This document shows positions 2,512 through 58,460 of a stretch of 64,000 bases of DNA, piece after piece. How positions within the stretch are numbered: position 1 is the first letter of the stretch; every line of letters starts with the position of its first letter. Where the stretch lies: contig JACRAK010000007.1 of NCBI GenBank assembly GCA_016234725.1, forward strand, positions 2,121-66,120, read 5' to 3'. The stretch comes from Candidatus Azambacteria bacterium. Its GTDB lineage: Bacteria > Patescibacteriota > Minisyncoccia > GWC2-36-17 > WO2-46-25. The notes under the pieces are model-generated. The model saw only the letters and a list, made by a program, of their open reading frames with translations. It had not been told where the DNA came from and made no database searches. The position numbers and the translations under genes are program-made.

Positions 2512-3261
2512 TTGTCAATCAACTTTACGAGGTCGCACCTCGTAAGATATAATGAAATAGTGAAACGCCCTACTTTTGCCAACGAACACATTTACCATGC
2601 ATACAACAGAGGCGTGGAAAAACGAAATGTCTTTCTCGACGAGGAGGATTATTTTCGCTTCATACACGACCTTTTTGAATTTAATGATGTAAACCCTGCC
2701 CTGCCAAGTTCTTACCAATCTTACGAGGTCGCACCTCGTAAGATTGGGGTTGGGAAAAACAAGCGAAAACCGAGGGAATTTCTCGTTCATATACTTGCTT
2801 TTACTCTTATGCCAAATCATTTTCATCTTCTTCTTATGCAAAAACGGGAGAATGGAATTTCGGAATTTCTCAGAAAATTAAGTGGTGGGTACACAATGTA
2901 TTTTAATCAGAAATATGAAAGATCGGGCGTTCTTTTTCAGGGAAGATTCAAGGCGGCACTCGTTGAGCGAGACGCCCACTTTATCCATCTCCCGTATTAT
3001 ATTCATGCGAACCCCCTCGATCTTGTCATGCCGGAATGGCGCGAGGGGAACTTGAAAAATCCGGAAGCCGCATTCACCTTTCTTACGTCCTATAAGTGGA
3101 GCAGTTTTTCTGATTATATTGGCAAGAGAAATTTTCCATCCGTCACACAAAGGGAGTTTCTACTCAATGGTGCGGGTAACGAAGAAAGATATAAATCCGA
3201 TTTTATTTCATGGTTGAAAAGCATACAACTCGACACCATCTCGGATATAATCATTGAATAA
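2512..3261 (+). CDS. REP-associated tyrosine transposase (RAYT, IS200/IS605-like Y1 HuH transposase); TTG start in the track, true start uncertain
   Basis: HuH motif LMPNHFHLLL; YHAYNRG(V)EKRNVF N-terminal motif; flanked by and containing its cognate REP palindromes. Confidence 0.75.
   Translation: MSINFTRSHLVRYNEIVKRPTFANEHIYHAYNRGVEKRNVFLDEEDYFRFIHDLFEFNDVNPALPSSYQSYEVAPRKIGVGKNKRKPREFLVHILAFTLMPNHFHLLLMQKRENGISEFLRKLSGGYTMYFNQKYERSGVLFQGRFKAALVERDAHFIHLPYYIHANPLDLVMPEWREGNLKNPEAAFTFLTSYKWSSFSDYIGKRNFPSVTQREFLLNGAGNEERYKSDFISWLKSIQLDTISDIIIE
2525..2545. repeat. REP palindrome copy 1 (ttacgaggt-cgc-acctcgtaa) at the 5' end of the RAYT gene
   Basis: perfect 9-bp-arm palindrome, identical core to copies 2 and 3. 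Confidence 0.85.
2715..2747. repeat. REP palindrome copy 2 (15-bp arms) inside the RAYT ORF, in-frame (encodes YQSYEVAPRKIGVG)
   Basis: ccaatcttacgaggt cgc acctcgtaagattgg. Confidence 0.85.
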
Positions 3262-3300
3262 ACCAATTCTTACGAGGTCGCACCTCGTAAGAATTGGTTT
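3260..3300. repeat. REP palindrome copy 3 (19-bp arms) overlapping the RAYT stop codon
   Basis: aaaccaattcttacgaggt cgc acctcgtaagaattggttt. Confidence 0.85.
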
Positions 3301-3313
3301 ATTGTAAATAAAA

Positions 3314-3339
3314 GGCCCCACGGCTTTCGCCGTGGGGCC
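3314..3339. terminator. bidirectional rho-independent terminator between RAYT (+) and the giant gene (-)
   Basis: ggccccacgg-ctttcg-ccgtggggcc with A/T runs on both sides. Confidence 0.7.
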
Positions 3340-3420
3340 CTCTCGTTGTGTGGAATATCTGTTCGCAAGCCCTGCTCCCTCCGTTCTCTTCGCTACTCCC
3401 TACTGGCTATCTTCTTGCCC

Positions 3421-6400
3421 TTAGAGCTGCTTCAAGAACCCGAAGATGTCCTGGAAGTTGGTGATGATAAGGTCGATCACGGTTTCGCCTTTCTTGGGCG
3501 TCAGGATGGTAAAGTCGGTCGAGCGTCCTTTGTTGTTGGACGGATCTGCCGACTCGACCTGGAAGCGGTACACCGCGCCCGGCTTGAAGCTCGTGATCAC
3601 CATCACATGGCTTGTCGTATACTCCTGGTCGAGCTTCGAGAATTCGACAAGGTCGCCTTTGCCCACGCCCTCTTTCCAGAATATCTGTGAAGTGGACGGC
3701 TCGTCCGTTTCCCAATAGATGAGCGTCTGCGTCCGTTCCGTTTTGCCCGGGAATATCGTGGACTCGGAGCGTACCTTGCTGATCACCGGCGCTTTCTCGT
3801 CCACCGTCGTGCGGATCGTGCCGATCACTTTGGAGGCGCGCGCATCGGTCACGTCCGCGCTCGATATCTCGATAAGGAAGTTGGTATTCGACGTAAGGTT
3901 CGCCACCGTCACTTCGTGGTCTTTCACGAATTCCGGCTTGCCCTGCGTCCTTGCTTCTTTGCTCAACAGCTCTCCGTCATCAAACGGCGTGTAGCGCACC
4001 TGCGAATTGGAAAGCGTGTTCGTCTTCCACACGACCGTGATGGAGTTTTCCGTGATGCGTTTGAATGAGTAATCAAGGATCTGCGGCAATTCCGGCTTGG
4101 TCTCAAACACAAAGTCGCGCGATTTGCCTTCCGGCCCCACTTTCGCCTGCGAACGGATCTGGAAATGATACGCCGTTGCGGGCTCAAGGTTCGGCACCGT
4201 CACGACGTGCGTCGTCACCTCTTCCCGCGGCTGGCCGACCTGCACGGTGTAGGGGTCCTTCGCATTCGGATCGTATTCGTCCTGCGGCACCAGCGCGATC
4301 AGCGAACCGGCCGGCTTGTTCGTGCGCCACGTCACCGTCGCTTTGTTCGAGTCGATATCCACCTGCGGCACGCCGCCGATGATCGCAGGCGGCACGACTT
4401 CCTGCGTGATCTCTGAAATGGTGTCGGTGATCTCGGTCGTCAACTCTTCAAGATCCGAAAGCGACACATCGGTGGACACGCTCTTGAGGATCGATTTGAA
4501 CCGCTGCACCGCGTCTCTGAGTGAATCCTGCGTCTTTGCCTTGCCGCGCAATTCTTCGAGTTCTTTTTTAAGCGATTCCAGATCTTCTTTCGCAAGCAAC
4601 GCTTCTTCTTCGACGGTAAGCGTCGTGAATGTCTGGTCGCCCGAGTACGCGCGATTCCCGCGCTGATCGGCGGACATCACTTTGAAATTGTATGCGGTCT
4701 TCGGATTAAGCCCCGACACCGTCACGGTATGATCGGTCGCCATTTCTTCCGAACCGGCGAGGCCCCCATAGTTCATCGTTACGCCGTATTTCACCAGCGA
4801 ATCGGCCGATTCGTCGGTCGTCCACGCGATCGTCGCCGCTGTCGCCTTGATGTCTTTGATCACGAGCGACGCGATGAGCGGCGGCGTCACATCGCCCACC
4901 TCTACGATGGTCCTGCCCACCGTTACCACGTCTTTTGCGATGGTGGCGCATGAAAGCGTCGCTGATACTTCGCCGCCGGAAGCGTTGAGTGACCGCACTT
5001 TCGCATAATAGGTCGTACTTTCGGTGAGGCCGGTGAACGTATTGGAGTGCGCGGTCACATAACCCGCCGCAGCGCGCGATGCGTTATCGATCGTCCCTGT
5101 CGGATACTGCGCAACCTGCGCGCCAGCTACGGTCGAGAAATAATTTGCACCGACATCAGCAGAAAGCAAGGAAAGTTCTGTCGTGGAGAACTGGTCGGTC
5201 GTCCACGTCACCGTTGCGGTGGAAGAGGTCGTGGAACATGCCGCCATCGTCGTTATTGCCGGCGGCGTTTGGGTGGTTGTTGTCAGAGAGCGGATCGTTG
5301 ATTCATCGTACTGCGTGTACGAATCGCTTGATGAGTTTTGGTCCGTAGAGCGCACTTTATAATAGTAGGTTGCCGAGTATGTCAGGTTCGGAATAACGAC
5401 CGTATGCACATACTGCCCGTTGCCGTCCGCCGAGGTTACCTGCGCGCTTGAACCGACTGATATCGGATTGACGAGCGCCGATGCGCTTGTCGTCGCGTAA
5501 AACACGATGGAGTCGGATGCCTTATCCGTTTTCCATGTAATAGAGGCAGAGTCAAACGCCGGCGTCGCCACGATGCTTCCGGAGACAATCGCGGGGCCAT
5601 TTTGCGTGGTGAATGTGTAGCCCGCATCCGACGCGCCTTCAAATGCGCAATTGCCCGTCGCATCGCACGACTCCGCGGCATACCGGTACTGCATGTTCTT
5701 GGTCAGATTTGAAAGCGCGATCGTATGCGTTGCGGGCGTGCTTGTCGCGACCGTGAGATAGCCGGGATTTCCCAACTTCGAGGTATATCGCTCGCGGCCA
5801 ACTTTTCCGCTATTCACGTTATTCGTGAAATCCTGCTGTGTCGCAAAATATACCGCGGCATTCGTCGCGCCCGACGCGCCATCCGTCGCGTTAAACGAGA
5901 CCGTCGCCGATGTCGCCTTCACCAGCGAACTCGCCACGTTCGTGACCACCGGCGCCGTAGCGTCATTGCCGCCGCCTCCTTCGCCGAGATTTACCGCCCC
6001 GTCCGGTTTCGCCGTCGTCGAGGCATTCGAACGAATGGACGTATTGCCGTTTGCCGCGGTCACGCCCAAGCGATACCGATAATACAGGTTCGTATTAAGA
6101 TTCTGATGCACATAGTAGTTGGTGGAAATGCTCGTGATCGGCGTCGTAGCGTTTATATAAGAAGAAAATGTCGTGTTGTTGGTCGATGTCGCGTATTCGA
6201 TCTTATATGAAGCGAAATCAGACGATGTCGCCGTTTCCCACCCGATGAATAAGCGCCAGTCGCTCGTGCCAACCTTGGAAACATCCTGCACCAAAAATGA
6301 GCTTGATGCCGCCGGCATGATCGTCGATGCGGTGGATGTTGCCGCGGTGTTCGCGTACGGGTCGCGTACCTGCACCTTCAATGTCTTTACTTCAAAATCG

Positions 6401-10726: not shown

Positions 10727-10757
10727 AATTCCTACGAGGTGCGACCTCGTAGGAATT
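10727..10757. repeat. REP-like palindrome, variant copy 4 (aattcctacgaggt-gcg-acctcgtaggaatt)
   Basis: same acgaggt/acctcgt core as the RAYT REPs with a different loop; sits between the giant-gene start and the HEPN gene stop. Confidence 0.75.
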
Positions 10758-11886: not shown

Positions 11887-12256
11887 GTATGTTGATATTC
11901 TCTATATGCCGTATCTCGGCTTCCCCGCTTACATCGTCAAACACTGCAGAAATGCTGTCCATCTGCCACTTTTGCTCAGGGGAGATCTTGCGCACGAACA
12001 AAAACATCTCGACTGTCCTGGCGAACTTTCTCAGTTTATGAAAGGTGATGTTTTCCTCCGGCGCGATGTAACTCCCCTTCTTTACGCTCTTTACCTCCAC
12101 AAAAACAATATCGCCGCCAGGACTTCTGGCGACGACATCTATCTCTCCGAACTTCGTATTAAAATTGCGCTCAATTATCGAATACCCTTCAGAAATAAGA
12201 TATTCTGCCGCTTTTTCTTCCCCCGTATTTCCCGTTGCGCGCCTTTGAGTGATCAT
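11882..12256 (-). CDS. yraN: YraN family (UPF0102) endonuclease; start moved to the Met at 12256 because the track's N-terminal extension is encoded by tRNA-derived repeats
   Basis: EKAAEYLISEGYSIIERNFNTKFGEIDVVA...VFVEVK matches UPF0102; upstream 144 nt of the track ORF are tRNA fragments. Confidence 0.75.
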   Translation of the reverse strand: MITQRRATGNTGEEKAAEYLISEGYSIIERNFNTKFGEIDVVARSPGGDIVFVEVKSVKKGSYIAPEENITFHKLRKFARTVEMFLFVRKISPEQKWQMDSISAVFDDVSGEAEIRHIENINIH

Positions 12257-12262
12257 CTTTTG

Positions 12263-12297
12263 TGGACTCACCGGGAATCGAACCCGGAACTCAGCAA
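12263..12297 (-). other. orphan 3' half of tRNA-Ala (anticodon-stem 3' strand to discriminator), preceded by GC-rich leader TTTAGGCGGGCAGG
   Basis: 35 nt identical to positions 38-73 of the adjacent complete tRNA-Ala. Confidence 0.8.
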
Positions 12298-12316
12298 CCT
12301 GCCCGCCTAAATTTTG

Positions 12317-12387
12317 TGGACTCACCGGGAATCGAACCCGGAACTCAGCAATGCGAATGCTGCGTAATACCATTTTACTACGAGCCC
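12317..12387 (-). tRNA. tRNA-Ala (anticodon CGC)
   Basis: hand-folded cloverleaf: acceptor GGGCTCG/TGAGTCC with G3:U70 Ala identity pair, D-stem GTAA/TTAC, anticodon stem CAGCA/TGCTG, loop TTCGCAT, T-arm CCGGG-TTCGATT-CCCGG. Confidence 0.8.
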
Positions 12388-12418
12388 TTTTAAAGTCCAC
12401 AAAACTTGGGCGGGTGAA

Positions 12419-12452
12419 CGAATGCTGCGTAATACCATTTTACTACGAGCCC
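12419..12452 (-). other. orphan 5' half of tRNA-Ala (positions 1-35, ends ...CAGCATTCG), followed by 31-nt element TTCACCCGCCCAAGTTTTGTGGACTTTAAAA (12388-12418)
   Basis: 34 nt identical to the 5' half of the complete tRNA-Ala. Confidence 0.8.
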
Positions 12453-12483
12453 TTTTAAAGTCCACAAAACTTGGGCGGGTGAA

Positions 12484-12519
12484 CGAATGCCGCGTACTAC
12501 GACTATACTATGAGCCCCC
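12484..12519 (-). other. orphan 5' half of a different tRNA (GGGGGCTCATAGTATAGTCGTAGTACGCGGCATTCG), followed by the same 31-nt element (12453-12483)
   Basis: tRNA-like acceptor, D-arm and anticodon-stem 5' strand ending at TTCG, then an identical junction sequence. Confidence 0.65.
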
Positions 12520-13450: not shown

Positions 13451-14989
13451 TTACACGCGAAACTTCCTCTGTTCTTCCTCCTCAAGCAACTTAACCTTCT
13501 CCTCGCCTTTCTTTATCATCTCCGAAAGCTCGCTGATAGAAAACTTATCCAACACAACCGCCCGCGCTTCCAGATAATCTTTATCGTTTTTTTGCGGGTC
13601 GTCAAGAACCTCTGAAAACAAGGCATTGAGAATGACCCCCACTTTCGGCCCCGGCGCAATGCCCAATATCCGCATCACCTCGTTTCCGTCAATTTTGAGC
13701 ATTTTAACGGAGATCGGGTCTTTTGACACCTTCTCGACCATATACCTGAAATGGCGCAATTTATAGGGCTCCGCCTTTGGCACGCCCGACCCTATCCTAT
13801 CGGCAAACCGAACATTGACGAGATCGTCCATATTTTCAAGCCCGACATTCCGTACCAGCCGCCGCACGGAAGACGCCGTCACCTCGTCTACATTATAGTA
13901 AAAGAGGTGATAGCGGATGAGTCGCGCGACATCCTCGATTTCCTTATTCGAGAACTTCAATCGGCTCATCGCCTGTGCGGCGATGCGCGCGCCGATCATG
14001 TCGTGGTTGTAAAACGTGGCATTCGGTCCCTCGCCCTGTTTTGCCTTCGGCTTCCCAACGTCATGGAGCAACGCCGCAAATCGCACCGTAAAACTAAACC
14101 CTTGCTCTGCGGCATAGCGGAGCGATTTTAAATTATGCTCATACACATCGAATATATGGTGTTTGTTTTGTGAAACGTGATACCCGTCAAGCAATTCCGG
14201 CAAAACGAAATGCAAGAGCCCGACCTGGCGCAATAGATCGATGCCGTCTGCCGCGTTTTTGCACATGACTATTTTTATGAGTTCGTCGCGGATGCGCTCG
14301 TGTGAAACAACGCGAATGAGAGCGGCGTGTTCCTTAACCGCGACGAGCGTTTGTTCTTCTATGGTAAACTCAAGCTGTGTCGCAAATCGCACCGCGCGCA
14401 CCAAGCGCAACGCGTCTTCATTGAACCGCTCACTTGCGTTTCCAACCGCACGCACTATTTTTTCTTTCAGGTCTTTTTGTCCACCGAATGGATCGATGAT
14501 CGTGAAACGTAAATCCTGAATCTTGGAGCTTGCATCTTGAATCATGGATCTTGAATCCTGGGTTTCGGGTTTCAAGTTTTGAGTTTCAAGATCGAGCGCC
14601 ATCGCGTTGATCGTAAAATCTCTCCGCGCAAGATCTTCTTGTAAATGCGTCGTATATTGCACGCTGTCCGGATGGCGTTTGTCGGAATATGCATTATCGA
14701 CGCGATATGTCGTGATCTGAATTTCCATGCCGTCAATGAACGCGGTCACTGTGCCGAATTTGTTTTCGTAAAAACTTTTGGGGAACACTGCCTGTACTTC
14801 CTCCGGCTTCGCGTTGGTCGCCACGTCCCAATCATTCGGTTCGCGCCCGAGCAACACGTCGCGCACGCAACCGCCGACGGCATACGCCGCAAATCCCGCG
14901 CGCGCCAGCTCGCTCCCGACGTACATCACTTCTTTCGGAATTACCTCATGCATGCGCATACTATAATACGCTAACGCGCTCCGGCGCAA
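13451..14989 (-). CDS. cca: CCA-adding tRNA nucleotidyltransferase (head domain + HD domain), carrying an in-frame ~25-aa repeat-derived insertion
   Basis: GGCVRD...DWD, RDFTINAMA...IIDPFGG and HD-domain HDVGK motifs; insertion LETQNLKPETQDSRSMIQDASSKIQDL between them. Confidence 0.85.
   Translation of the reverse strand: MRRSALAYYSMRMHEVIPKEVMYVGSELARAGFAAYAVGGCVRDVLLGREPNDWDVATNAKPEEVQAVFPKSFYENKFGTVTAFIDGMEIQITTYRVDNAYSDKRHPDSVQYTTHLQEDLARRDFTINAMALDLETQNLKPETQDSRSMIQDASSKIQDLRFTIIDPFGGQKDLKEKIVRAVGNASERFNEDALRLVRAVRFATQLEFTIEEQTLVAVKEHAALIRVVSHERIRDELIKIVMCKNAADGIDLLRQVGLLHFVLPELLDGYHVSQNKHHIFDVYEHNLKSLRYAAEQGFSFTVRFAALLHDVGKPKAKQGEGPNATFYNHDMIGARIAAQAMSRLKFSNKEIEDVARLIRYHLFYYNVDEVTASSVRRLVRNVGLENMDDLVNVRFADRIGSGVPKAEPYKLRHFRYMVEKVSKDPISVKMLKIDGNEVMRILGIAPGPKVGVILNALFSEVLDDPQKNDKDYLEARAVVLDKFSISELSEMIKKGEEKVKLLEEEEQRKFRV
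14511..14590. repeat. tandem ATCTTGAAT-type repeat block lying in-frame inside cca
   Basis: gaatcttggagcttgcatcttgaatcatggatcttgaatcctgggtttcgggtttcaagttttgagtttcaagatcg; related to blocks at 45784-45905 and 46341-46450. Confidence 0.7.
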
Positions 14990-15124
14990 TAATAATGACC
15001 GCGGTGATATGTATTACAGTGTATTACTCTATCTCGGTTCTTACTATGCCTGTTATTACTACGGGACGAAAGAGAGGAGAGGGGAGGGGAGAGAAAAAGA
15101 AGAAAGGAATTTGTAATACACTCG

Positions 15125-15156
15125 TCACAAACTCACGCGTATGCGTGAGTTTGTGA
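15125..15156. repeat. dispersed palindromic element copy 1 (tcacaaactcacgc-gtat-gcgtgagtttgtga), preceded by tgtaataca
   Basis: perfect 14-bp arms; near-identical copies at 15756-15789 and 24111-24142. Confidence 0.8.
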
Positions 15157-15169
15157 TTTTCCTGTTCTC

Positions 15170-24085: not shown

Positions 24086-24110
24086 GCGGAAGGAATGTGT
24101 AATACAATTA

Positions 24111-24142
24111 TCACAAACTCACGCATACGCGTGAGTTTGTGA
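24111..24142. repeat. dispersed palindromic element copy 3 (tcacaaactcacgc-atac-gcgtgagtttgtga) followed by a T-run; likely also the terminator of the Wzy_C gene
   Basis: same arms as 15125-15156; followed by tttatcttgttctttt. Confidence 0.8.
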
Positions 24143-24225
24143 TTTATCTTGTTCTTTTGCAAAAATCAACGATACGCAATCCACAGAAAGAAAAAAGGTA
24201 ATGATTATGCTATACTGAAAACACC

Positions 24226-24615: not shown

Positions 24616-24713
24616 GGTATACTATTAACTAACCCATTCGATAGACTCAGGGTTAGTCCTGAGTGCAGTCGAAGGACTAATAACTTTTAACTAACAATTA
24701 ATAACTCACACAC

Positions 24714-25522: not shown

Positions 25523-26140
25523 ATGTTTTTTTCACTTCTTGATTCCGCGCTTAACTGGGTGCCGCTTGTTGCGGGTGTTGCGGCGATCGTATTTGTATAC
25601 ATCAGACATCGGAAAGGCACGTGCGAGATACGCATCATGAAAAAGGTGGTGCTTTCACTCGCGGGGTTCCTTGCATGCATTGTCGTTTTCAAGATCGCGG
25701 TGCATTATTTCATCCTTCGAAGCGACGCTTCGTTTGGCATTGGCCTTTTGCCGCCGCACACGCCGTTATGGGATTGGTTTGCACCCATGGCGATCGCGCG
25801 CTATGTCTTTCCTTTTGCAGTGGCACTTGCGGCCGCCGGAATTGCGTTTCTTGTCACGCCGCTCGTCAATAAACTATTCAAAGGAGAGCTTTTTGCCGAG
25901 GAAGACAAATACATCGTTGCGCTTGCCGCGCTTATCGTCGGGTGGCCGAACTTTGTGCTGTATTTGGGCGCGGCGGTCATGCTCACCGTGCTGCTTTCTA
26001 TCCGCGAAACGCTGCGGTACGGCATTGAGGCGCGCATCGTACTGACCGACGCACTTATTTTTTCCGTGCCGCTCGTGCTGTTATTCGGCGACATCGTCGC
26101 GCCGCATCTGTATCTGTACAAACTTACTATCTTCGCATAA
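25523..26140 (+). CDS. polytopic membrane protein, possible short prepilin peptidase (A24-like)
   Basis: about 6 TM helices; located between the pilin and pilB genes; GD in LLFGDIVAP resembles the second catalytic-Asp motif; weak. Confidence 0.4.
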   Translation: MFFSLLDSALNWVPLVAGVAAIVFVYIRHRKGTCEIRIMKKVVLSLAGFLACIVVFKIAVHYFILRSDASFGIGLLPPHTPLWDWFAPMAIARYVFPFAVALAAAGIAFLVTPLVNKLFKGELFAEEDKYIVALAALIVGWPNFVLYLGAAVMLTVLLSIRETLRYGIEARIVLTDALIFSVPLVLLFGDIVAPHLYLYKLTIFA

Positions 26141-26143
26141 CGC

Positions 26144-27856
26144 ATGCATATTTCTGAGGCGAACCTCAAAAAGATCGTCGTCGCATCGGGCATCATCTCT
26201 GATGCGCAATTTGAAGCGGCGCGGCAGGAAGCGCTGCGGTCAAACCGCACCATCGGCAACGTACTCATCGGCAAAGGAGATATCACGGAAAATTATTTCG
26301 CCGAGATCGTCGCGAACTATTTTGCCGTGCCCATCGTGAATTTCCAGGCCGCGCCGCCCGATGACGCCGCGCTTCACTTGCTCCCCGAACAATTCTCGAA
26401 AGCAAAACGCATCGCGCTGTTTGCCATCGATCATGAGAAAAAAACGGCAAAGCTCGCGATGGAAGACCCGGGCGACCTTAAAACCATCGACCTTGTTGCC
26501 GCAAAATTCGATATGCGCGTTGAGCCGCATCTCGCCACATCGTTATCGATGAAGGTCGCTTTTAAAGAATACAAGAAAGATATTTACAAAGAATTCAACA
26601 CGATCATCGAGGAGTCCATCAAGGAAGCGCTTGCGGCGGGCAACGTCAAAGACATCGGGAAAATGGCCGAGCATGTGCCCATCATCGCCATCACCGACGG
26701 ACTCATGGAGTACGCGGTCGCGCTCGGCGCATCCGATATTCATATCGAACGCCTGCCGGAAAAAGTGCTCGTGCGCTACCGCATCGACGGCATCCTGCGC
26801 GACATCGTGGAACTCCCCAAAGAGATCGACGACGCCATCATCGCCCGCATCAAAATACTTTCAAGCCTCCAGATCGATGTCCACTTCACGCCGCAAGACG
26901 GCCGGTTCAAGTTCAAACTTGAAGACCAATCCATCGACGTACGCGTATCCGTCATGCCCACGTTCTACGGCGAAAAAGTGGTCATGCGCCTCCTCCGCGG
27001 CTCGATCCGTCCTTTGAACCTTGCCGAACTCGGCATATCCGAACGGGACATCGCCACTATCAATGAAGCCATCAAACGGACGTTCGGCATGATCCTCATC
27101 ACCGGCCCGACCGGCTCAGGTAAGACCACCACGCTGTATGCGATACTCCACAAGCTCAATACGCCGACGGTCAACATCGCCACGATCGAAGACCCTATCG
27201 AGTACGACGTCGAGCGCATCAACCAAACACAGGTGAACCCCAAAGCCGGCATCACCTTCGCCAACGGCCTGCGCAGCTTGATGCGCCAGAACCCCGACAT
27301 CATCATGGTGGGGGAGATCCGCGACGAAGAAACCGTTTCTATTTCACTCAACGCCGCGATGACCGGCCACCTTGTGCTTTCCACACTCCACACCAACGAC
27401 GCGCCCACCGCGATCCCGCGGTTCATCGATATGGGCGGCGAGCCGTTCCTTGTGGCAAACACGCTCAATGTCATCATCGCCCAGCGGCTCGTACGCCGCA
27501 TCTGCACCGTCTGCGTTTCAAGCTATACGCCGACACCAGAAGCGAAAGAATCCATGAAAAAACAGCTTGCGCTCTACCATGCCGACCCCGCCCGCATCAA
27601 GATCCCTTCCCAGCTATACAAAGGAAAAGGGTGTCAGGCATGTTCAGGCACCGGCTATTCGGGACAGATCGGGATCTTTGAGGTGCTCAATGTAAGTCCG
27701 CGCATCAGAGAACTTATCAAACCGGGCGTTGCCATCGACCAATTGCGCGCGGTCGCCGAGGAAGAAGGGATGCGCCGCATGTTCGAGGACGGCCTCGCAA
27801 AAGCGGAGGCCGGCGCCACCACCATCGAAGAAGTGTTCAGGGTCATTATGGAGTAA
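26144..27856 (+). CDS. pilB: type IV pilus assembly ATPase PilB (GspE family)
   Basis: GSPII_E N-terminal domain; Walker A GPTGSGKTT; Asp-box MVGEIRD; CxxC...CxxC tetracysteine. Confidence 0.9.
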   Translation: MHISEANLKKIVVASGIISDAQFEAARQEALRSNRTIGNVLIGKGDITENYFAEIVANYFAVPIVNFQAAPPDDAALHLLPEQFSKAKRIALFAIDHEKKTAKLAMEDPGDLKTIDLVAAKFDMRVEPHLATSLSMKVAFKEYKKDIYKEFNTIIEESIKEALAAGNVKDIGKMAEHVPIIAITDGLMEYAVALGASDIHIERLPEKVLVRYRIDGILRDIVELPKEIDDAIIARIKILSSLQIDVHFTPQDGRFKFKLEDQSIDVRVSVMPTFYGEKVVMRLLRGSIRPLNLAELGISERDIATINEAIKRTFGMILITGPTGSGKTTTLYAILHKLNTPTVNIATIEDPIEYDVERINQTQVNPKAGITFANGLRSLMRQNPDIIMVGEIRDEETVSISLNAAMTGHLVLSTLHTNDAPTAIPRFIDMGGEPFLVANTLNVIIAQRLVRRICTVCVSSYTPTPEAKESMKKQLALYHADPARIKIPSQLYKGKGCQACSGTGYSGQIGIFEVLNVSPRIRELIKPGVAIDQLRAVAEEEGMRRMFEDGLAKAEAGATTIEEVFRVIME

Positions 27857-27867
27857 CTCCCAACTAA

Positions 27868-27885
27868 TAACTAACAACTTATAAC
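27868..27885. repeat. left inverted repeat of 4HB cassette 1 (taactaacaacttataac)
   Basis: 17/18 match to the reverse complement of 28292-28310. Confidence 0.7.
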
Positions 27886-27897
27886 AAATAACACACT

Positions 27898-28257
27898 GTG
27901 GAGGCTTTCCGATTCAAAAACTGGAGCGTTTATAAAGAAGCAAAGGCCTTATTCATGTCTGTCGTAAAAATAACACACGAGCTACCCAGTGAATACAGAT
28001 ACACAATAGGCGACCAAATGATCCGCTCGGGGCTATCAATCGTTTTAAACATTGCGGAAGGAAGCGGTAAAGAATCGGACAAGGAATTGAACAGATATTT
28101 CAACATCGCCATGGGTTCGACCAATGAAACGCTTGCGGTTATTGATGTCCTTAGCGATCTTCGTATAGCGGATGAAAAGAAAATGGAAGAAGCAGAAAAG
28201 TTATGCGTAAGCATTTCGAAACAGCTTGGCGGATTTAAAAAGAAGTTAAAAAAATAA
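27898..28257 (+). CDS. four-helix-bundle protein (23S rRNA intervening-sequence protein family, Avd-like)
   Basis: FKNWSVYKEAKAL...SGLSIVLNIAEGSGKESDKELNRYFNIAMGSTNET. Confidence 0.8.
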   Translation: MEAFRFKNWSVYKEAKALFMSVVKITHELPSEYRYTIGDQMIRSGLSIVLNIAEGSGKESDKELNRYFNIAMGSTNETLAVIDVLSDLRIADEKKMEEAEKLCVSISKQLGGFKKKLKK

Positions 28258-28291
28258 GTCCACGTAAGTTATCAGTTAATGGTTATAAGTT

Positions 28292-28310
28292 TTTAGTTAA
28301 CGGCCATGCC
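28292..28310. repeat. right inverted repeat of 4HB cassette 1 (gttataagtttttagttaa)
   Basis: reverse complement ttaactaaaaacttataac. Confidence 0.7.
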
Positions 28311-29517
28311 CTTATTCACATACGTCGCATCGAAAAAAGACGGCACGATTGTAGAAGAAGAGATCGAAACAAAAGACCAGGCGTCCGTCGTCGCCTATCT
28401 GGAAAAACACGACTACTTTCCGGTTTCTGTTAAGGAAAAAAAGGTGTATCGCTCTCTTTCTATCTCATTTTCAAGCAAAATAACCCTGCTTGAAAAAGTG
28501 ACATTCGCCCGCAATCTCGCGCTCATGATAAAGTCGGGCATCGGCATGTCGGAGGCGGTCGCCATTCTCCTTGAAGACGCCGAGCGGGCGCCTCTCCGAA
28601 AAGTTCTTTCAAAAATAAAAGCGGACCTCGAAAAAGGGCTTCAGCTTTCCGCTGCGCTTGAAACATTCCCTTCGCAATTTTCTACCGTGTTCATCAGCCT
28701 CCTGCGAGCGGGAGAGACATCGGGAAATCTTGAAATGTCACTGCTTCAAATAGCCACCCAGCTTAAAAAAGAGAACGATCTCAAAAAGAAAGTGCTGTCT
28801 GCCATGGCGTATCCCGCGATCCTTCTTTCACTTGCGTTCGGCGTCGTGGCACTGCTAGTCACCGTGGTGCTTCCGCGCGTCAGCAAAATATTCACGCAGG
28901 CGCATGTACAACTGCCGCTCCTCACCCGCATCTTGCTTGGCATTTCCGATTTTGTCGCGAGCCAATTTTTCGCAACGCTCGCGATCATTGCGGGCATCGT
29001 CGCGATCATCGCGCTTGCCCGCAGGTCATCTGCCGGCAAGCGCGCCTTGCAGGTCCTTTTCATCAAAACACCGCTTATCGCGCCGCTCATGAAAAAGATC
29101 GCGCTGGTCCGTTTCACCGGCACCCTCCATTCGCTTATGAAAGCAGGCGTGCCGCTCACCAAAGCGCTTGAAATCACCGCGCAGGCGATCGGCAACGCAT
29201 CATACCGGCAGGTACTTTTAGATATCGCAAAAAACGAGATATCTAAAGGCATTTCATTCGGCATGGCGCTCAAACAGCGACCGGAATATTTCCCGCGGCT
29301 CACGTCAAGCATGATCGTCATAGGGGAAAAATCGGGAAACCTTGAAAACGTACTTGAAAACTTGAGCTCCTTTTACGAGGAAGAGGTGGACGGCACGATC
29401 AAGTCGCTTATCACTATTTTAGAGCCGGCATTGTTGCTCTGCATCGGCCTCATCATCGGCGCGATCGCGCTCTCTATCGTCATGCCGATCTATCAGATGA
29501 TCAATGTGGTGCGGTAG
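28306..29517 (+). CDS. pilC: type IV pilus inner-membrane platform protein PilC (GspF family)
   Basis: two T2SS-F repeats and 3 TM segments; 403 aa. Confidence 0.85.
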   Translation: MPLFTYVASKKDGTIVEEEIETKDQASVVAYLEKHDYFPVSVKEKKVYRSLSISFSSKITLLEKVTFARNLALMIKSGIGMSEAVAILLEDAERAPLRKVLSKIKADLEKGLQLSAALETFPSQFSTVFISLLRAGETSGNLEMSLLQIATQLKKENDLKKKVLSAMAYPAILLSLAFGVVALLVTVVLPRVSKIFTQAHVQLPLLTRILLGISDFVASQFFATLAIIAGIVAIIALARRSSAGKRALQVLFIKTPLIAPLMKKIALVRFTGTLHSLMKAGVPLTKALEITAQAIGNASYRQVLLDIAKNEISKGISFGMALKQRPEYFPRLTSSMIVIGEKSGNLENVLENLSSFYEEEVDGTIKSLITILEPALLLCIGLIIGAIALSIVMPIYQMINVVR

Positions 29518-29527
29518 GGTTATAACA

Positions 29528-29556
29528 GCGAGTAGAATGTAGCGAGTAGGGAGTAG
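29528..29556. repeat. left inverted repeat of 4HB cassette 2, GTAG-repeat family (gcgagtagaatgtagcgagtagggagtag)
   Basis: 15-mer gcgagtagaatgtag is the exact reverse complement of part of 29971-29992. Confidence 0.8.
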
Positions 29557-29616
29557 AAGAAATGCAAAAGAGAAGCAAAAATCAGAACTTAGGGAGTAGG
29601 GAAAAGAGCGTGAGAA

Positions 29617-30465
29617 ATGAAAACGCAAACATATAAAGATCTGATAGTGTGGCAGAAATCCAAAAAACTTGTTTTGGAGATCTATGCTCTTGCCGAGCAA
29701 TTTCCTCCCAGCGAAAAATTCGGGATCACCTCCCAGCTTACGCGCGCGGCGATCTCCATCCCGTTAAACATCGCTGAAGGGTATAGACGAAGGGGGGATA
29801 AGGAAAGAGCGCAGTTTTTTTCTATTGCTTTTGGTTCGGCCGCAGAAGTCGAAGCATTGATCGATATCTGTAAAGATTTGCACCTTTTCAAAAATTGTAA
29901 TTTCACCGCCAGCGAGAATCTTTTAGACGAAGTATTGCGCATGCTAAATGTTTTCATAAAAAATTCTTCCCTACATTCTACTCGCTACTCGCCGCCTTCT
30001 CCACAAAAGGGTTTCACTATTCTCGAACTTATCGTTGTACTCGGTATTTTCGCCGTCATTGCCGGCGTTGCGGCGGTACAACTTGCCAACTTCCAGCGCG
30101 GCACCGTGCTTGAAAGCACATCAAAAGACGTCGTGAGCGCGTTGCGCTTGGCGCACGACAAAGCAATGCTCGGAGAGGACGGTGACAGCAACGGACAAGG
30201 TGATGCGTGGGGCATCCGTTTTGCCAACAGCACAACAGATACGTATGCTTCTTTTTATGGTGCAGCGTACAATGTAAACAATGTGAAAGAAACGGTTTAT
30301 CTTTCTCCGCCGCTCGCATTCAGCGCGCCCACTGAAGGAAACAATACCGATGTGATATTCACCAAGCTTTCAGGGACAACGACTTCGGCGAACATCACCA
30401 TCGGTGACAACGGCCAGATAAAGACGGTCACCGTGGACGCGTCGGGAAGGATCAGCTCAAATTAA
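29617..30465 (+). CDS. composite ORF: four-helix-bundle (IVS-family) protein (residues 1-~118) reading through, with no stop, into a pseudopilin (from ~PQKGFTILELIVVLGIF). The pilin part may start at the internal Met at 29941 (24-aa leader)
   Basis: N-terminal part DLIVWQKSKKLVLEIY...TSQLTRAAISIPLNIAEGYRRR...AFGSAAEVEAL = 4HB family; C-terminal part has a class III signal (G/FTILELIVV); the junction coincides with the right IR of the cassette. Confidence 0.65.
   Translation: MKTQTYKDLIVWQKSKKLVLEIYALAEQFPPSEKFGITSQLTRAAISIPLNIAEGYRRRGDKERAQFFSIAFGSAAEVEALIDICKDLHLFKNCNFTASENLLDEVLRMLNVFIKNSSLHSTRYSPPSPQKGFTILELIVVLGIFAVIAGVAAVQLANFQRGTVLESTSKDVVSALRLAHDKAMLGEDGDSNGQGDAWGIRFANSTTDTYASFYGAAYNVNNVKETVYLSPPLAFSAPTEGNNTDVIFTKLSGTTTSANITIGDNGQIKTVTVDASGRISSN
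29971..29992. repeat. right inverted repeat of 4HB cassette 2 (ctacattctactcgctactcgc), in-frame inside the composite ORF (encodes LHSTRYS)
   Basis: reverse complement gcgagtagcgagtagaatgtag. Confidence 0.8.
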
Positions 30466-30483
30466 ACATTTGACATTTAACAT

Positions 30484-31197
30484 ATGACATTTGACGATAA
30501 AAATTCAAATGTCAGATACCGGATGTTACATATGAAAAGTCAAAAGTCAAAAGTCAAACGTTGGGAGAAAGGTTTCTCCCTTTTTGAAGTCCTCATCGCC
30601 ATTTCCGTTTTTGCCGTTATCGGCGTCGTCGCGGCACAGTTGATCGGCATTTCTCTGCAATCCGACAAAACAAGCGGGCAAAAGACCGTCGCGCTCCAGC
30701 TTACGCAAGAAACCGCTGAAGCGCTCGATTCGCTTGCTGGAGAGTCGTGGCAGAACATCTACGGCCTTTCCAAGGGATCCGCGAACCATTATTACACCGT
30801 AGTCAGCGGCAGTAAGTGGGCGACTTCCACCGGCGACGAACTGCTCACGATAAACGCCGGTTCATACAAGCGGTATTTCTATATAGAAAATGTGTCCCGT
30901 AGCAGCGGAGGCGCCATCGTCGTTTCCGGAGGCAACAACGACCCCTCTACCCAAAAAGCTACGGTGGTCGCCTCATGGCAAAACGACGGGGGCGTGGATA
31001 TCGGCTTCGCCACAACGACAAAATATCTCATGCGCGCGCGCAACACCGCCGCCACGCAAACTTCATGGGCATATTCCGGACAAGGATCGAATCCTTCTTC
31101 CGGCGAAACAGCGGACTTCAACAGCGACTACGCATCGGATGCCGGCAACATCAGCACCTCCACCCCCTCGGGAAGCTTGACCCTTACACAACAATAA
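30484..31197 (+). CDS. pseudopilin / minor pilin (prepilin-type N-terminal domain); true start probably an internal Met (MLHMKSQ... or MKSQ...)
   Basis: KG/FSLFEVLIAISVFAVIGVV. Confidence 0.75.
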   Translation: MTFDDKNSNVRYRMLHMKSQKSKVKRWEKGFSLFEVLIAISVFAVIGVVAAQLIGISLQSDKTSGQKTVALQLTQETAEALDSLAGESWQNIYGLSKGSANHYYTVVSGSKWATSTGDELLTINAGSYKRYFYIENVSRSSGGAIVVSGGNNDPSTQKATVVASWQNDGGVDIGFATTTKYLMRARNTAATQTSWAYSGQGSNPSSGETADFNSDYASDAGNISTSTPSGSLTLTQQ

Positions 31198-45783: not shown

Positions 45784-45905
45784 CATGAAACATAGATCGT
45801 GAAACTTGAAACATGAAACATCAGGGCTTGAAACATATAACATATAACTTGAAACTGAGCGATTCAGGATTCACGTTTCAGGATTCACGTTTCAGGATTC
45901 ATGAA
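45784..45905. repeat. intergenic repeat block (cttgaaacatgaaac ... 3x caggattcacgttt ... aggattcatga) upstream of and overlapping the PilX-like gene start
   Basis: shares start and end motifs with 46341-46450 and the in-frame block in cca. Confidence 0.7.
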
Positions 45906-46340: not shown

Positions 46341-46450
46341 GTCTTGAAACATGAAACGTAAAACTTATAACTCAAAACTTAAAGCTTCAAGACTCGAGTT
46401 CAAGGTTTATGACACATGTTTCAAGTTTCACGATTTAAGATTCAAGATTC
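46341..46450. repeat. intergenic repeat block (cttgaaacatgaaac ... ttcaagattcaagattcatgga) upstream of pilM
   Basis: related to 45784-45905. Confidence 0.7.
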
Positions 46451-47932
46451 ATGGATTTAGCACAACTTTTTAAGCCGGTTGAAAAGATCGTCGGCATGGA
46501 GATCGCGCACGGGCGCGTGTGCGCGGTGTTGCTTGAAAAAGACAAAAAGGGCGTTGTTACCGGCACGAAAAAGGAAGCGGTGATCCCCCATGATATCGTC
46601 GCGGAGGACGGCACGGTACTCGACAAGCAAAAGCTCGCCCTAGCGCTCAAAACGATCTGGCACGCGGGAAAGGATGTTCTCAGATCAAAATATGTCATCG
46701 TCGCGCTCCCTTCGGCGCCGGTGTTCACCGATATCGTCAGATTCCCCAAGGTCACCCAAGAACAACTGAAAGAGGCGATGGAGCTGCATATGGCGACGAA
46801 AACATCGTTTCCCATCGACACGAATGATATTTATTACGACTGGCAGCCGCTCACCGCGCATAATGTGTATCATGAGGATGTTCTTTTGAGCTTCGCAAAA
46901 CAGCCGTATATCCGCGACTTCGCGGAAGCGTGCGAAGCGGCGGGGCTTGAGCCGCTCGCGTTCGAAACGCCGCAACCCGCGACCCTGCGCGCGATCACCA
47001 ACTTTGAGAAAAAAACCGGTTTGCTTATCCGCGTCTCGCAGGAATGCGCGGAATTTTCCATTGCTGCCGGCGCCGACCTATTCTTCACTCGCACCATACC
47101 GCTTCCTCCTTCGTACGATCTTGAAACGCTCAAAAACGCTCTTGCGACCGAAGCGACGCATGCGCTCAACTATTACGCGACGGAAAACCCCGAAGAAGCG
47201 CCCGTGACGACCGCTGTTCTTCTTACGCATGTGCCGCAAAAACAAGAGCTTGCCGCCCATCTTCGCACAGCGCTCGGCATCGAAATTGCAGATGCGCGGT
47301 TCGCTCATGATACCGCCATAGGGGACTCGTGCGCGGCGGCGTTCGGCGCTGCGTTGCGCGGGCTTGTCCGCAGAGAGGAGGACACGCTCATCAGCCTTTT
47401 GCCGATCGGCACCGAAGAAGCATATCGCAAACGGCGCTTTCTCGCTTATGTATCGCTCTGGTCTGATATCATCAATGCAACCGCGCTCCTCCTTGTCGTT
47501 CTGTTTGGCGCGACATGGTTTTTCGTCAATATTGCCTACACGAATGCGGTCCGCCAGACGACCCAGCTGAAAGCGGCATCGGGCGCAAGCACAAAGAGCG
47601 ACGAACTGGAACAAAACGCGCAGCGCTTCAATGCGGCGGTCGGGCGCATCACAGCGGCAAATGATACCATCATGCCATGGTCTCTTTTCATAGAAAAAAC
47701 ACTTCCCTCATTCACCAAAAACGACATCACCATGGAAAGCGTTTCATTTCCCTCATTCCGTTCCGACGGATCGCTTCAGATCACGGCGAAAACGCGCGCC
47801 AGCGCGATCGCATTCCGTAAAGCGCTGGAAGAAGATCCTCTGTTTTCCGAAGTGCACATGCCCTTCCTCAGCGTGACGCAAAAAGAGAACATCCTCCTTA
47901 CCATTACTTTCCGCTTCGCACCACAACCATGA
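46451..47932 (+). CDS. pilM: type IV pilus assembly protein PilM (actin-like ATPase fold) fused to a PilN-like TM/periplasmic segment
   Basis: N-terminal 350 aa PilM-like; TM at LLLVVLFGATWFFVNIAY then a periplasmic tail. Confidence 0.7.
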   Translation: MDLAQLFKPVEKIVGMEIAHGRVCAVLLEKDKKGVVTGTKKEAVIPHDIVAEDGTVLDKQKLALALKTIWHAGKDVLRSKYVIVALPSAPVFTDIVRFPKVTQEQLKEAMELHMATKTSFPIDTNDIYYDWQPLTAHNVYHEDVLLSFAKQPYIRDFAEACEAAGLEPLAFETPQPATLRAITNFEKKTGLLIRVSQECAEFSIAAGADLFFTRTIPLPPSYDLETLKNALATEATHALNYYATENPEEAPVTTAVLLTHVPQKQELAAHLRTALGIEIADARFAHDTAIGDSCAAAFGAALRGLVRREEDTLISLLPIGTEEAYRKRRFLAYVSLWSDIINATALLLVVLFGATWFFVNIAYTNAVRQTTQLKAASGASTKSDELEQNAQRFNAAVGRITAANDTIMPWSLFIEKTLPSFTKNDITMESVSFPSFRSDGSLQITAKTRASAIAFRKALEEDPLFSEVHMPFLSVTQKENILLTITFRFAPQP

Positions 47933-58350: not shown

Positions 58351-58452
58351 AACATAGCGAGTAGAACGTAGGACAAACACCAAAAAACAAAAACGGGGCT
58401 TCCACCCGTTTTTTTCTACTCGCTACCCCCTACTCCCTACGTTCTACATTCT
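58346..58452. repeat. GTAG-repeat palindromic element enclosing a bidirectional terminator (hairpin aaacggg-gcttcca-cccgttt at 58390-58417)
   Basis: arms gtagaacatagcgagtagaacgtagg / cctacgttctac...ctactcgctac. Confidence 0.75.
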
Positions 58453-58460
58453 GTGCGCCC

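Follow-up and report, generated by a model that had tools for sequence, protein, structure and literature searches.

Within a 64,000-nt window of a Candidatus Azambacteria genome (contig JACRAK010000007.1; window G+C 50.8%), the type IV pilus genes pilB and pilC are separated by a cassette in which a gene for a small four-helix-bundle protein of family PF05635 (IVP) lies between two arrays of tandem 7-nt units, referred to here as heptad arms. The features of the locus are laid out as follows (ORF, open reading frame).

26144–27856, + strand: pilB, type IV pilus ATPase (PF00437 T2SSE, E 1e-123)
27857–28305, + strand: cassette 1 (left arm, IVP ORF and right arm; 449 nt), which occupies the entire pilB–pilC spacer
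27854–27892, + strand: left heptad arm, TAACTCC CAACTAA TAACTAA CAACTTA TAACAAA TAAC (lag-7 scan, repeat and motif searches)
27898–28257, + strand: IVP1, 119 aa, GTG start, a PF05635/TIGR02436 four-helix bundle (profile searches)
28264–28303, + strand: right heptad arm, GTAAGTT ATCAGTT AATGGTT ATAAGTT TTTAGTT AACGG (repeat search, lag-7 scan)
28306–29517, + strand: pilC, platform protein (PF00482 T2SSF, E 3.3e-55)

The arms are fitted closely to the neighboring genes: the pilB stop codon TAA (27854–27856) is the start of the left arm's first unit, and the pilC ATG lies only 2 nt past the end of the right arm. The first-pass annotation of this DNA had placed a 119-aa four-helix-bundle gene between the pilus ATPase and platform genes and bounded it by an 18-bp inverted repeat; the gene order was confirmed by the matches to PF05635, TIGR02436, T2SSE and T2SSF, and the repeat by a motif search, in which TAACTAACAACTTATAAC (27868–27885) and the reverse complement of 28282–28299 agreed at 17/18 positions. 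With up to three mismatches allowed, this motif has four matches in the window, where 0.03 are expected, a count that was reached in 0/100 shuffles. The complementarity extends further, to 88% over 25 nt (27868–27892 with 28275–28299) and 74% over 31 nt, and the arms are arrays of 5–6 tandem units rather than a plain 18-bp repeat.

A scan of a genome collection with PilC, which yielded three loci, indicated that the cassette comes and goes as a whole. In L003 (PilC 88% identical) the junction reads ...ATGGAATAG C ATGCCG..., that is, the pilB stop codon TAG, one base, and the pilC ATG, with neither arms nor ORF, while L005 (PilC 84% identical) and L001 (IVP 87% identical) have the gene there, between heptad arms. 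Because the L003 junction is empty and those of L001, L005 and the window are filled, the 449 nt at 27857–28305 constitute one unit of gain or loss, and cassette 1 is a discrete unit, wholly present or wholly absent among close relatives. This agrees with the earlier claim of an inserted cassette, which had been staked on two possible failures, a motif that did not recur and relatives with the same gene but no repeats; the relatives' gene proved to have repeats, and related motifs recur in the window. There was no target-site duplication at pilB|pilC, where the filled site reads TAA|CTCCC...ACGGCC|ATG and the empty one TAG-C-ATG. More distant genomes have ORF-less heptad hairpins in the pilB–pilC spacer, one in L086 with a z-score against shuffled sequences of −5.3, and one in L002 that folds at −16.6 kcal/mol, without a shuffle test; L002 also has a 64%-identical IVP cassette upstream of pilB. 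On the other side of pilB, L005 has a 112-nt ORF-less heptad hairpin (3719–3831; z −3.8) between the gene for a 205-aa membrane protein and pilB, where the window has a 3-nt spacer (26138–26146), and here, too, close relatives differ by the presence or absence of a heptad hairpin. The 205-aa protein of the window (25523–26140) had no Pfam or NCBIfam match.

When the RNA from 27850 to 28310 was folded, the arms formed the closing stem in both the minimum free energy (MFE) and centroid structures. No promoter-like (sigma-70-like) or terminator-like site was found on the + strand within cassette 1, and the neighbors are co-oriented and tightly packed, so the cassette is almost certainly transcribed as part of the pilB–pilC message. 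An Rfam scan of the window returned three tRNAs only and no known RNA family in the cassette, and Pfam searches of 36 window ORFs, including every crudely called ORF of at least 250 aa, found no reverse transcriptase domain (no separate search for template or variable repeats was made), in keeping with the first-pass statement that neither rRNA nor reverse transcriptase is nearby.

This architecture resembles that of the intervening sequences (IVSs) of 23S rRNA, which in Coxiella burnetii, Leptospira and Brucella can bear an S23p ORF. In rRNA, IVSs replace the loops of helices (helices 9, 25 and 45 of 23S) and are excised by RNase III without religation. In Coxiella, for example, the IVS measures 428 nt, carries an S23p ORF, is closed by a terminal stem of 28 bp and is cleaved by RNase III (PMC4990558). 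Cassette 1, at 449 nt, falls within the IVS size range that we applied (about 400–750 nt in total), has terminal inverted repeats that close a stem of about 25–30 bp, and carries in the loop a PF05635 gene that takes up 360 nt of its length. It also shares with 23S IVSs the lack of its own promoter, transcription inside a host unit, a sporadic distribution among relatives and the existence of short ORF-less versions. With no rRNA in the window, and with pilB and pilC as its neighbors, the element is IVS-like and not an rRNA IVS. We favor, with moderate confidence, the interpretation of 27857–28305 as an IVS-type stem-loop element that is built like the ORF-bearing 23S IVSs and carried in an mRNA operon. 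In the polycistronic RNA the arms would pair into a stem of about 25–31 bp, bringing the end of pilB beside the start of pilC, and the stem is probably cut by RNase III, by analogy with rRNA IVSs, for which such cutting has been demonstrated experimentally. Such cleavage would free the IVP message and part the pilB and pilC messages, and ORF-less heptad hairpins in other spacers would be miniature counterparts, like the ORF-less rRNA IVSs.

IVP1 is a clear member of its family, matching PF05635 (23S_rRNA_IVP) with an E value of 7.6e-28 and 97.3 bits (cut-off 33.8) and TIGR02436 with 96.2 bits (cut-off 24); a second family member encoded downstream of pilC, IVP2, exceeds the same curated cut-offs with 121.9 and 115.4 bits. 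The GTG start of IVP1 is backed by N-terminal residues conserved in homologues (F4, R5, F6, W9, V11, Y12); the deposited protein (P0002, “four helix bundle protein”) has a later start and 100 aa, and is 100% identical over the annotated part. Differences between IVP1 and its orthologues are mostly synonymous (dN/dS 0.045–0.06), indicating from the coding sequences that the gene is under strong purifying selection and the protein functional. This is a point of difference from Coxiella, where the S23p ORF was reported to be decaying and not translated (PMC4990558). An AlphaFold model of IVP1 has four long helices (pLDDT 92.6), and Foldseek placed it nearest to Xcc0516 (2GSC; TM 0.88) and BT_0352 (2RLD; TM 0.81), which represent the four-helix bundle of about 110–125 residues expected for the family and whose crystal structures are homopentamers of five chains each; the relationship to 2GSC was also detected by phmmer (E 2e-7). 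More than 4,000 PF05635 relatives were obtained from one search. PADLOC gave no match for IVP1 or IVP2, and a role as a component of anti-phage defense was set aside.

The next Foldseek matches were to Avd, the accessory protein of diversity-generating retroelements (DGRs), in 4DWL and 8UB7 (TM 0.72–0.74), which raises the alternative that IVP1 is the Avd of such an element. The two share the four-helix-bundle fold, the closest IVP relatives with structures are pentameric, Avd is a nucleic-acid-binding partner in a ribonucleoprotein according to the title of 8UB7, and remote homology is also apparent from a PHROG match (“Avd protein of DGR”, E 1e-7). Against this, IVP1 scored below both curated Avd cut-offs (PF22296 bAvd, 19.7 bits with a cut-off of 40; NF033474 DivGenRetAVD, 22.2 bits with a cut-off of 80), the scanned ORFs include no reverse transcriptase, the neighbors are pilus genes, and the gene is set in an operon spacer with heptad arms. 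The Avd alternative is thus effectively refuted at this locus.

To our knowledge, the rRNA intervening sequence is the sole genomic setting described for PF05635 proteins (“four helix bundle protein”, “S23 ribosomal protein”). Scanning metagenome contigs with an alignment of 20 IVPs gave 80 loci, of which 69 were unique; 78 stems entered the stem analysis, and 73 IVP genes were compared with 265 other genes. In nearly every locus, tandem T-N-A-Y-R-A-C units precede the IVP gene and G-T-Y-R-T-N-A units follow it, often with the IVP stop codon opening the first downstream unit; 56/69 unique loci have at least two AYRAC units upstream and at least two GTYRT units downstream. The two arms covary in the Y-R pair: their dominant type is complementary in 42/61 loci, and the observed overlap score of arm types was reached in 0/5000 permutations. 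Identity at lag 7 was 0.52 and 0.55 in the two flanks compared to 0.26 in random segments, and lag 7, with its multiple 14, was the sole autocorrelation peak. Ungapped stems have a median of 27 bp and reach at least 22 bp in 63/78 cases, and an inverted-repeat score of at least 14 was found at 62% of the IVP genes compared to 3% of other genes in the same loci. Arms have 2–10 units, with a mode of 4–5, and the genes on either side are co-oriented in about 90% of cases, at median gaps of 52 and 38 nt that are essentially filled by the arms. Stop codons in all three frames were considered as a reason for the period of 7; they are enriched (upstream 45% vs 12% in shuffled sequence, downstream 39% vs 18%) but far from universal, and this idea was set aside.

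In nine of the metagenome loci the cassette is flanked by two tRNA genes of the same orientation. In one array, Ser(tga)-Ser(gct)-Arg-Ser(cga)-Ser(gga), the cassette occupies spacer 1 in L032, L037, L041 and L053, while in the same array of L042 and L081 it occupies spacer 4 and spacer 1 is empty (about 95 nt). This is a second presence/absence polymorphism of IVP cassettes and, together with the empty L003 junction, shows the sporadic occurrence that is typical of rRNA-type IVSs. The spacers of the L032 tRNA array (2780–5142) hold, besides the IVP cassette, an ORF-less heptad hairpin, a small lipoprotein-like gene and a TadA-like gene.

Similar arms were found in other phyla. A tblastn search of plasmids gave IVP matches mainly in Nostoc, Calothrix and Anabaena, and in 12 of 13 inspected plasmid regions, from Cyanobacteriota, Bacteroidota, Gemmatimonadota and Alphaproteobacteria, heptad arrays lie beside the IVP gene, most of them complementary. 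Representative arms are the following.

Nostoc punctiforme: GGAGTCA x4 / CTCCTGA
Picosynechococcus, between cmr2 and cmr3: AGGAGAT / ATCTCCT
Anabaena sp. 90, between cas6 and cas4: GGTGACA / CTGTCAC
Nostoc edaphicum: GTAGGGA x8 / TCCCTAC x4
Geminocystis: AAGGGAA / TTCCCTT
Riemerella (Bacteroidota): AAGGTTN / NAACCTT

In Pseudanabaena and Gemmatirosa the heptad arrays are in direct orientation. One locus, from Azospirillum lipoferum (L108), has its IVP gene within a gene for 23S rRNA (910 bits to Rfam LSU), in what would be the helix-45 region of the E. coli sequence. Its arms are complementary heptads, AGAGGAC GGATGAC AGAGGAC GGAGGAC on one side and CCGTCCT CTGTCTT CTGTCAT CCGTCTT on the other, and therefore a canonical ORF-bearing rRNA IVS, the one bona fide case examined, shares heptad arms with the cassette of the window. 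The heptad-arm design thus flanks IVP genes across phyla, including one inside 23S rRNA. The difference between the two kinds of element is one of placement, the cassettes lying between protein genes (pilB|pilC), in the 5' end of a pilin gene or between tRNA genes, and not in an rRNA loop. Several of the cyanobacterial plasmid cassettes lie within CRISPR-Cas operons (cmr2|cmr3, cas6|cas4; L099 1201–1557, L101 601–969, L102 604–963), a placement that probably explains why PF05635 appears in surveys as a cas-associated gene.

These data also bear on another account, in which IVP1 is an ordinary resident gene that happens to lie between two heptad hairpins serving as general intercistronic punctuation, such as processing or stability signals, with no cassette and no mobility. 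Heptad tracts are indeed frequent: the window has about 20, and 32 loci have 119 that are not IVP flanks. Many ORF-less hairpins lie between co-directional genes, and the purifying selection on IVP would suit a resident gene, as would the TadA-like deaminase gene of L032, a non-IVP gene after tRNA-Arg(acg) that has the same GTAAC/GTTAC arms as the IVP. We nevertheless consider this account improbable, given that L003 lacks both arms and ORF together, that inverted arms mark IVP genes so much more often than other genes of the same loci, that the association is seen in five phyla and inside rRNA, and that organisms differ in where the cassette sits within one tRNA array.

The window itself contains a second cassette, 1.3 kb downstream of the first and with arms of different sequence (cassette 2, 29527–29993), in which the IVP gene has become joined to a pilin gene.

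29527–29558, + strand: left arm of cassette 2, GTAG type, AGCGAGTA GAATGTA GCGAGTA GGGAGTA GAA (inverted repeat, RNA fold)
29617–29967, + strand: IVP2 domain, PF05635 (E 1.7e-35), 31% identical to IVP1, without its own stop codon
29968–29993, + strand: right arm of cassette 2, TCCCTAC ATTCTAC TCGCTAC TCGCC, inside the reading frame and encoding the pilin leader ..SLHSTRYSP..
29617–30465, + strand: IVP2–pilin fusion ORF, 282 aa, with an N_methyl motif at aa 129–152 (TIGR02532; NCBI MBI5912982.1)

The repeat AGCGAGTAGAATGTAGCGA (29527–29545) pairs with TCCCTACATTCTACTCGCT (29968–29986) over 19 nt with 95% complementarity and heptad periodicity, and the arms close the RNA fold in the MFE and centroid structures, so that terminal inverted repeats and a closing stem of the rRNA-IVS type are features of both cassettes. 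The IVP2 frame continues through the right arm and enters a pilin whose prepilin motif is of the standard kind (...NSSLHSTRYSPPSPQKG|FTILELIVV), the arm supplying part of the leader (..STRYSPPSPQKG|FTILE). The cleavage motif is QKG|FTILE, with Gly at 30010–30012 and Phe at 30013–30015, and an in-frame internal ATG is present at 29941. The 131-residue IVP part would be cut off by prepilin peptidase, or translation would begin at the ATG at 29941; no prepilin peptidase was identified within the window. Between the left arm and the start of IVP2 there is a short ORF of 24 codons, MQKRSKNQNLGSREK... (29562–29636), in a different frame from IVP2. Its sequence is similar to the K/Q-rich beginning of the L004 pilin leader (MKQKQQNTK), and it may be what remains of the pilin's original start.

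Relatives of IVP2 that are 73–76% identical lie just 5' of a pilin-like gene and have the same GTAG/CTAC arm type, and those designated P0122–P0135 have a stop codon at the domain end. A second fusion was found in P0121, and both there and in the window the in-frame fusion arose because the IVP stop codon and the pilin ATG were lost. In L090–L092 this pilin-like gene comes directly after pilC and has a weak N_methyl match; L086 has an intervening gene of 143 aa, and the gene downstream of it lacks a Pfam match. The right arm lies within the leader-coding region of the downstream gene in L086 and L090–L093, for example MKFKFFTRYSLNSKCG|FTLIE, and L090 has three extra heptad units. Three units equal 7 codons, so copy-number changes of this kind preserve the frame. 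In L003 and L004 the orthologous pilin has an ordinary short leader and no IVP. Heptad arrays occur in the leader-coding regions of several pilin or pseudopilin genes (30466–30562, 45813–45900, L004 2361–2415, L090 3364–3425); at 30466–30562, AAGTCAA x3 (GTCAAAA units) encodes the leader KSQKSKVK, and the array of L004 consists of TGCTTCA x3. Heptad cassettes can thus become part of coding sequence, in the form of pilin leader peptides and of an IVP–pilin fusion. The slot 3' of pilC is itself variable: in the window (29518–29616) it is taken by the IVP2 cassette, in L003 and L004 by a gene for a Fic-like 350-aa protein (L003 7213–8349) and in L001 (1866–2742) by a nucleotidyltransferase/HepT toxin–antitoxin pair.

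Heptad sequence is not confined to the two cassettes. A lag scan of the whole window found 225 positions with at least 19/28 matches at lag 7, compared to 0–17 at every other lag from 4 to 12, and these make up the tracts counted above, nearly all of which are intergenic. The principal ones are listed here.

24681–24711, + strand: one-sided heptad tract TAACTTT TAACTAA CAATTAA TAACTCA in the 5' leader of the major pilin gene (ATG 24714), kept in L003 and L005
30466–30562, + strand: ORF-less pair of heptad tracts (TTGACAT... / GTCAAAA x3) at the start of the next pilin gene, without counterpart in L003
45783–45903, + strand: ORF-less heptad hairpin of GAAAC/GTTTC type between two pilin-like genes (z −3.56)
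46341–46455, + strand: ORF-less heptad hairpin upstream of a pilM-like gene (z −2.96)
58335–58460, + strand: ORF-less heptad hairpin between convergent genes, of the CTACTCG type seen in the cassette-2 arms (z −5.9)

The first of these corresponds to what had been called a solo copy of the repeat upstream of the major pilin. The match is there, at 24688–24705 with two mismatches, as is a hairpin at about 24634–24675 (z −2.1), but the tract is one-sided and is not demonstrably the relic of a cassette. The hairpin at 30466–30562 is not significant (z −1.47) and leaves the GTCAAAA units unused, and one on the minus strand at 14484–14600 is likewise not significant (z −1.45). The cassette-2 arm motif CTACTCGCTAC occurs 15 times in the window, where 0.47 are expected, including in the hairpin at 58335–58460 and in a stretch inside ksgA. 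That stretch consists of five CTACTCG/CTACTGC heptads (62552–62608) in the coding region of a ksgA/rsmA-like rRNA dimethylase, where they specify ..LSTRYSLLPTRYC.., part of a loop immediately ahead of the conserved NIPYY motif, and their unit type matches the IVP2 arms. The loop of the hairpin at 58335–58460 contains a terminator-like hairpin, AAAAACGGGGCTTCCACCCGTTTTTTT (58389–58416). Across loci, IVP-arm heptad cores are weakly more alike to other tracts of the same locus, being within one mismatch in 34% of comparisons, than to tracts of other loci (19%). The idea that ORF-less hairpins are deletion derivatives of IVP cassettes is unproven: when their loops (L002 6166–6210, L005 3755–3800) were compared with the ends of IVP genes, 20 to 264 of 500 shuffles aligned as well.

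Several observations weigh against an IVS-type element that acts at the RNA level. The whole folds of cassette 1 (z −0.03) and cassette 2 (z −1.4) are no more stable than those of shuffled sequences, in the case of cassette 1 because the 380-nt loop dominates. Non-Watson-Crick positions of the stems are G·U in 92 cases and A·C in 110, without an excess of G·U, and hence selection for pairing of the sense RNA is not demonstrated; complementarity could instead be maintained in the DNA or simply be of recent origin. The stems are imperfect (74–88% here), often forming a ladder of 4–5-bp helices with small internal loops, which may be poor substrates for RNase III, and cleavage by that enzyme is itself an analogy with rRNA. 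A cut in the right arm of cassette 2, which lies inside the pilin frame, would remove the pilin start codon or behead its message. In L102 and L106 the heptad arrays are direct, not inverted, and the TadA-like gene of L032 has IVP-type arms without encoding an IVP. The strong purifying selection on IVP1, finally, does not fit a purely parasitic element.

Some of these points would be accommodated by a DNA-level mobile hairpin of the type represented by miniature inverted-repeat transposable elements (MITEs) or repetitive extragenic palindromic (REP) sequences, in which an enzyme acting in trans uses the arms as terminal recognition or hairpin sites, IVP is an accessory or passenger, and RNA pairing is incidental. 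Whole units are present or absent at identical junctions, the stems have no G·U excess, copies of CTACTCGCTAC are dispersed through the window, ORF-less hairpins differ between close relatives (L005 3719–3831 and the 3-nt window spacer; window 30466–30562 and L003), and the window has a gene for a RAYT-like Y1 transposase. MITEs, too, are short units bounded by inverted repeats, are gained and lost between relatives and have ORF-less and ORF-bearing forms, and the REPtrons of REP sequences and their RAYT genes likewise combine a small gene between short inverted repeats with many ORF-less hairpin copies in the spacers of the genome. However, the pilB|pilC junction shows no target-site duplication, the cassettes are without a linked or cognate transposase, and ORF-less loops are not significantly similar to IVP gene ends. 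Arm sequences vary widely and only period and complementarity are kept, which would be unusual for the recognition sites of an enzyme. The gene flanked by repeats in a REPtron is an HUH/Y1 transposase, and IVP1 lacks a Y1_Tnp match; REPtrons have single palindromes in place of tandem heptads, and the Y1 transposase of the window has a different palindrome of its own, TACGAGGTCGCACCTCGTA. We regard a DNA-level element as unlikely, and it is compatible with the IVS-type interpretation.

The IVP gene family, rRNA IVSs and their processing by RNase III are known. An incomplete literature search found no paper on IVS-type cassettes in mRNA or tRNA operons, on heptad arms as a hallmark of the IVP family, or on arms absorbed into pilin leaders or an IVP–pilin fusion. 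Our data indicate that an IVS-like stem-loop cassette resides also in mRNA and tRNA operons, among them pilus genes, tRNA arrays and cyanobacterial cas operons, and that its arms are made of 7-nt repeats in every phylum sampled, a genuine 23S IVS included. The heptad arrays are a candidate ligand or processing site, providing a testable handle on IVS elements and their protein, and the recurring appearance of IVP as a spurious “CRISPR-associated” or “DGR-like” gene is probably explained. A possible origin is also suggested for heptanucleotide repeats in candidate phyla radiation (CPR) and cyanobacterial genomes. Cyanobacterial short tandemly repeated repetitive (STRR) sequences, heptanucleotide repeats reportedly described by Mazel and colleagues in 1990, are likewise intergenic tandem 7-nt repeats, and the cyanobacterial IVP genes in L096, L101 and L105 are flanked by such heptads. 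We know of no protein family to which STRRs have been tied, and a literature search of limited coverage found no paper linking them to PF05635; we consider the connection a lead, not a result.

More speculatively, PF05635 proteins and tandem heptanucleotide arrays might together be one widespread two-part system, in which a pentameric IVP ring would read 4–5 single-stranded units, one per subunit, and so control the pairing, cutting or copying of the arms. The TRAP ring, which reads spaced GAG repeats, is the model for this idea, and by that analogy a pentamer reading tandem units would be an attractive account of the conserved period of 7; the arm lengths, with a mode near the five units expected for a pentamer and a wide range around it, are suggestive only. 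On this proposal the cassettes would have given rise, as non-autonomous offspring, to the ORF-less hairpins, the pilin leaders encoded by heptads and the STRR heptamers of cyanobacteria, which may have spread through an RNA intermediate with IVP as an Avd-like cofactor. We think it doubtful that the whole of this proposal will hold, but if true it would give a function to a large orphan family and an explanation of rRNA IVSs and of a 35-year-old class of cyanobacterial repeats.

Other repeats in the window are of separate kinds. The RAYT-like Y1 transposase gene (2512–3261) matches PF01797 (E 1.4e-8), and its top NCBIfam match, below the cut-off, is REP-associated tyrosine transposase. The perfect 19-nt palindrome TACGAGGTCGCACCTCGTA flanks and interrupts it (2512–3293) and occurs also at 10733–10751, giving four sites in the window where 0.01 are expected; gene and palindromes form a REPtron-like arrangement in a CPR genome. 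Around the tRNA-Ala gene (12316–12387, minus strand), partial tRNA sequences are duplicated on either side in the region 12250–12510, a 3'-half-like segment, TGTGGACTCACCGGGAATCGAACCCGGAACTCAGCAA, being present twice and a 60-nt 5'-half-like segment two or three times. A perfect palindrome with a 15-bp stem, ATCACAAACTCACGC....GCGTGAGTTTGTGAT, is found at two distant intergenic sites (24110–24143 and about 15124–15158), where it is terminator-like on both strands.

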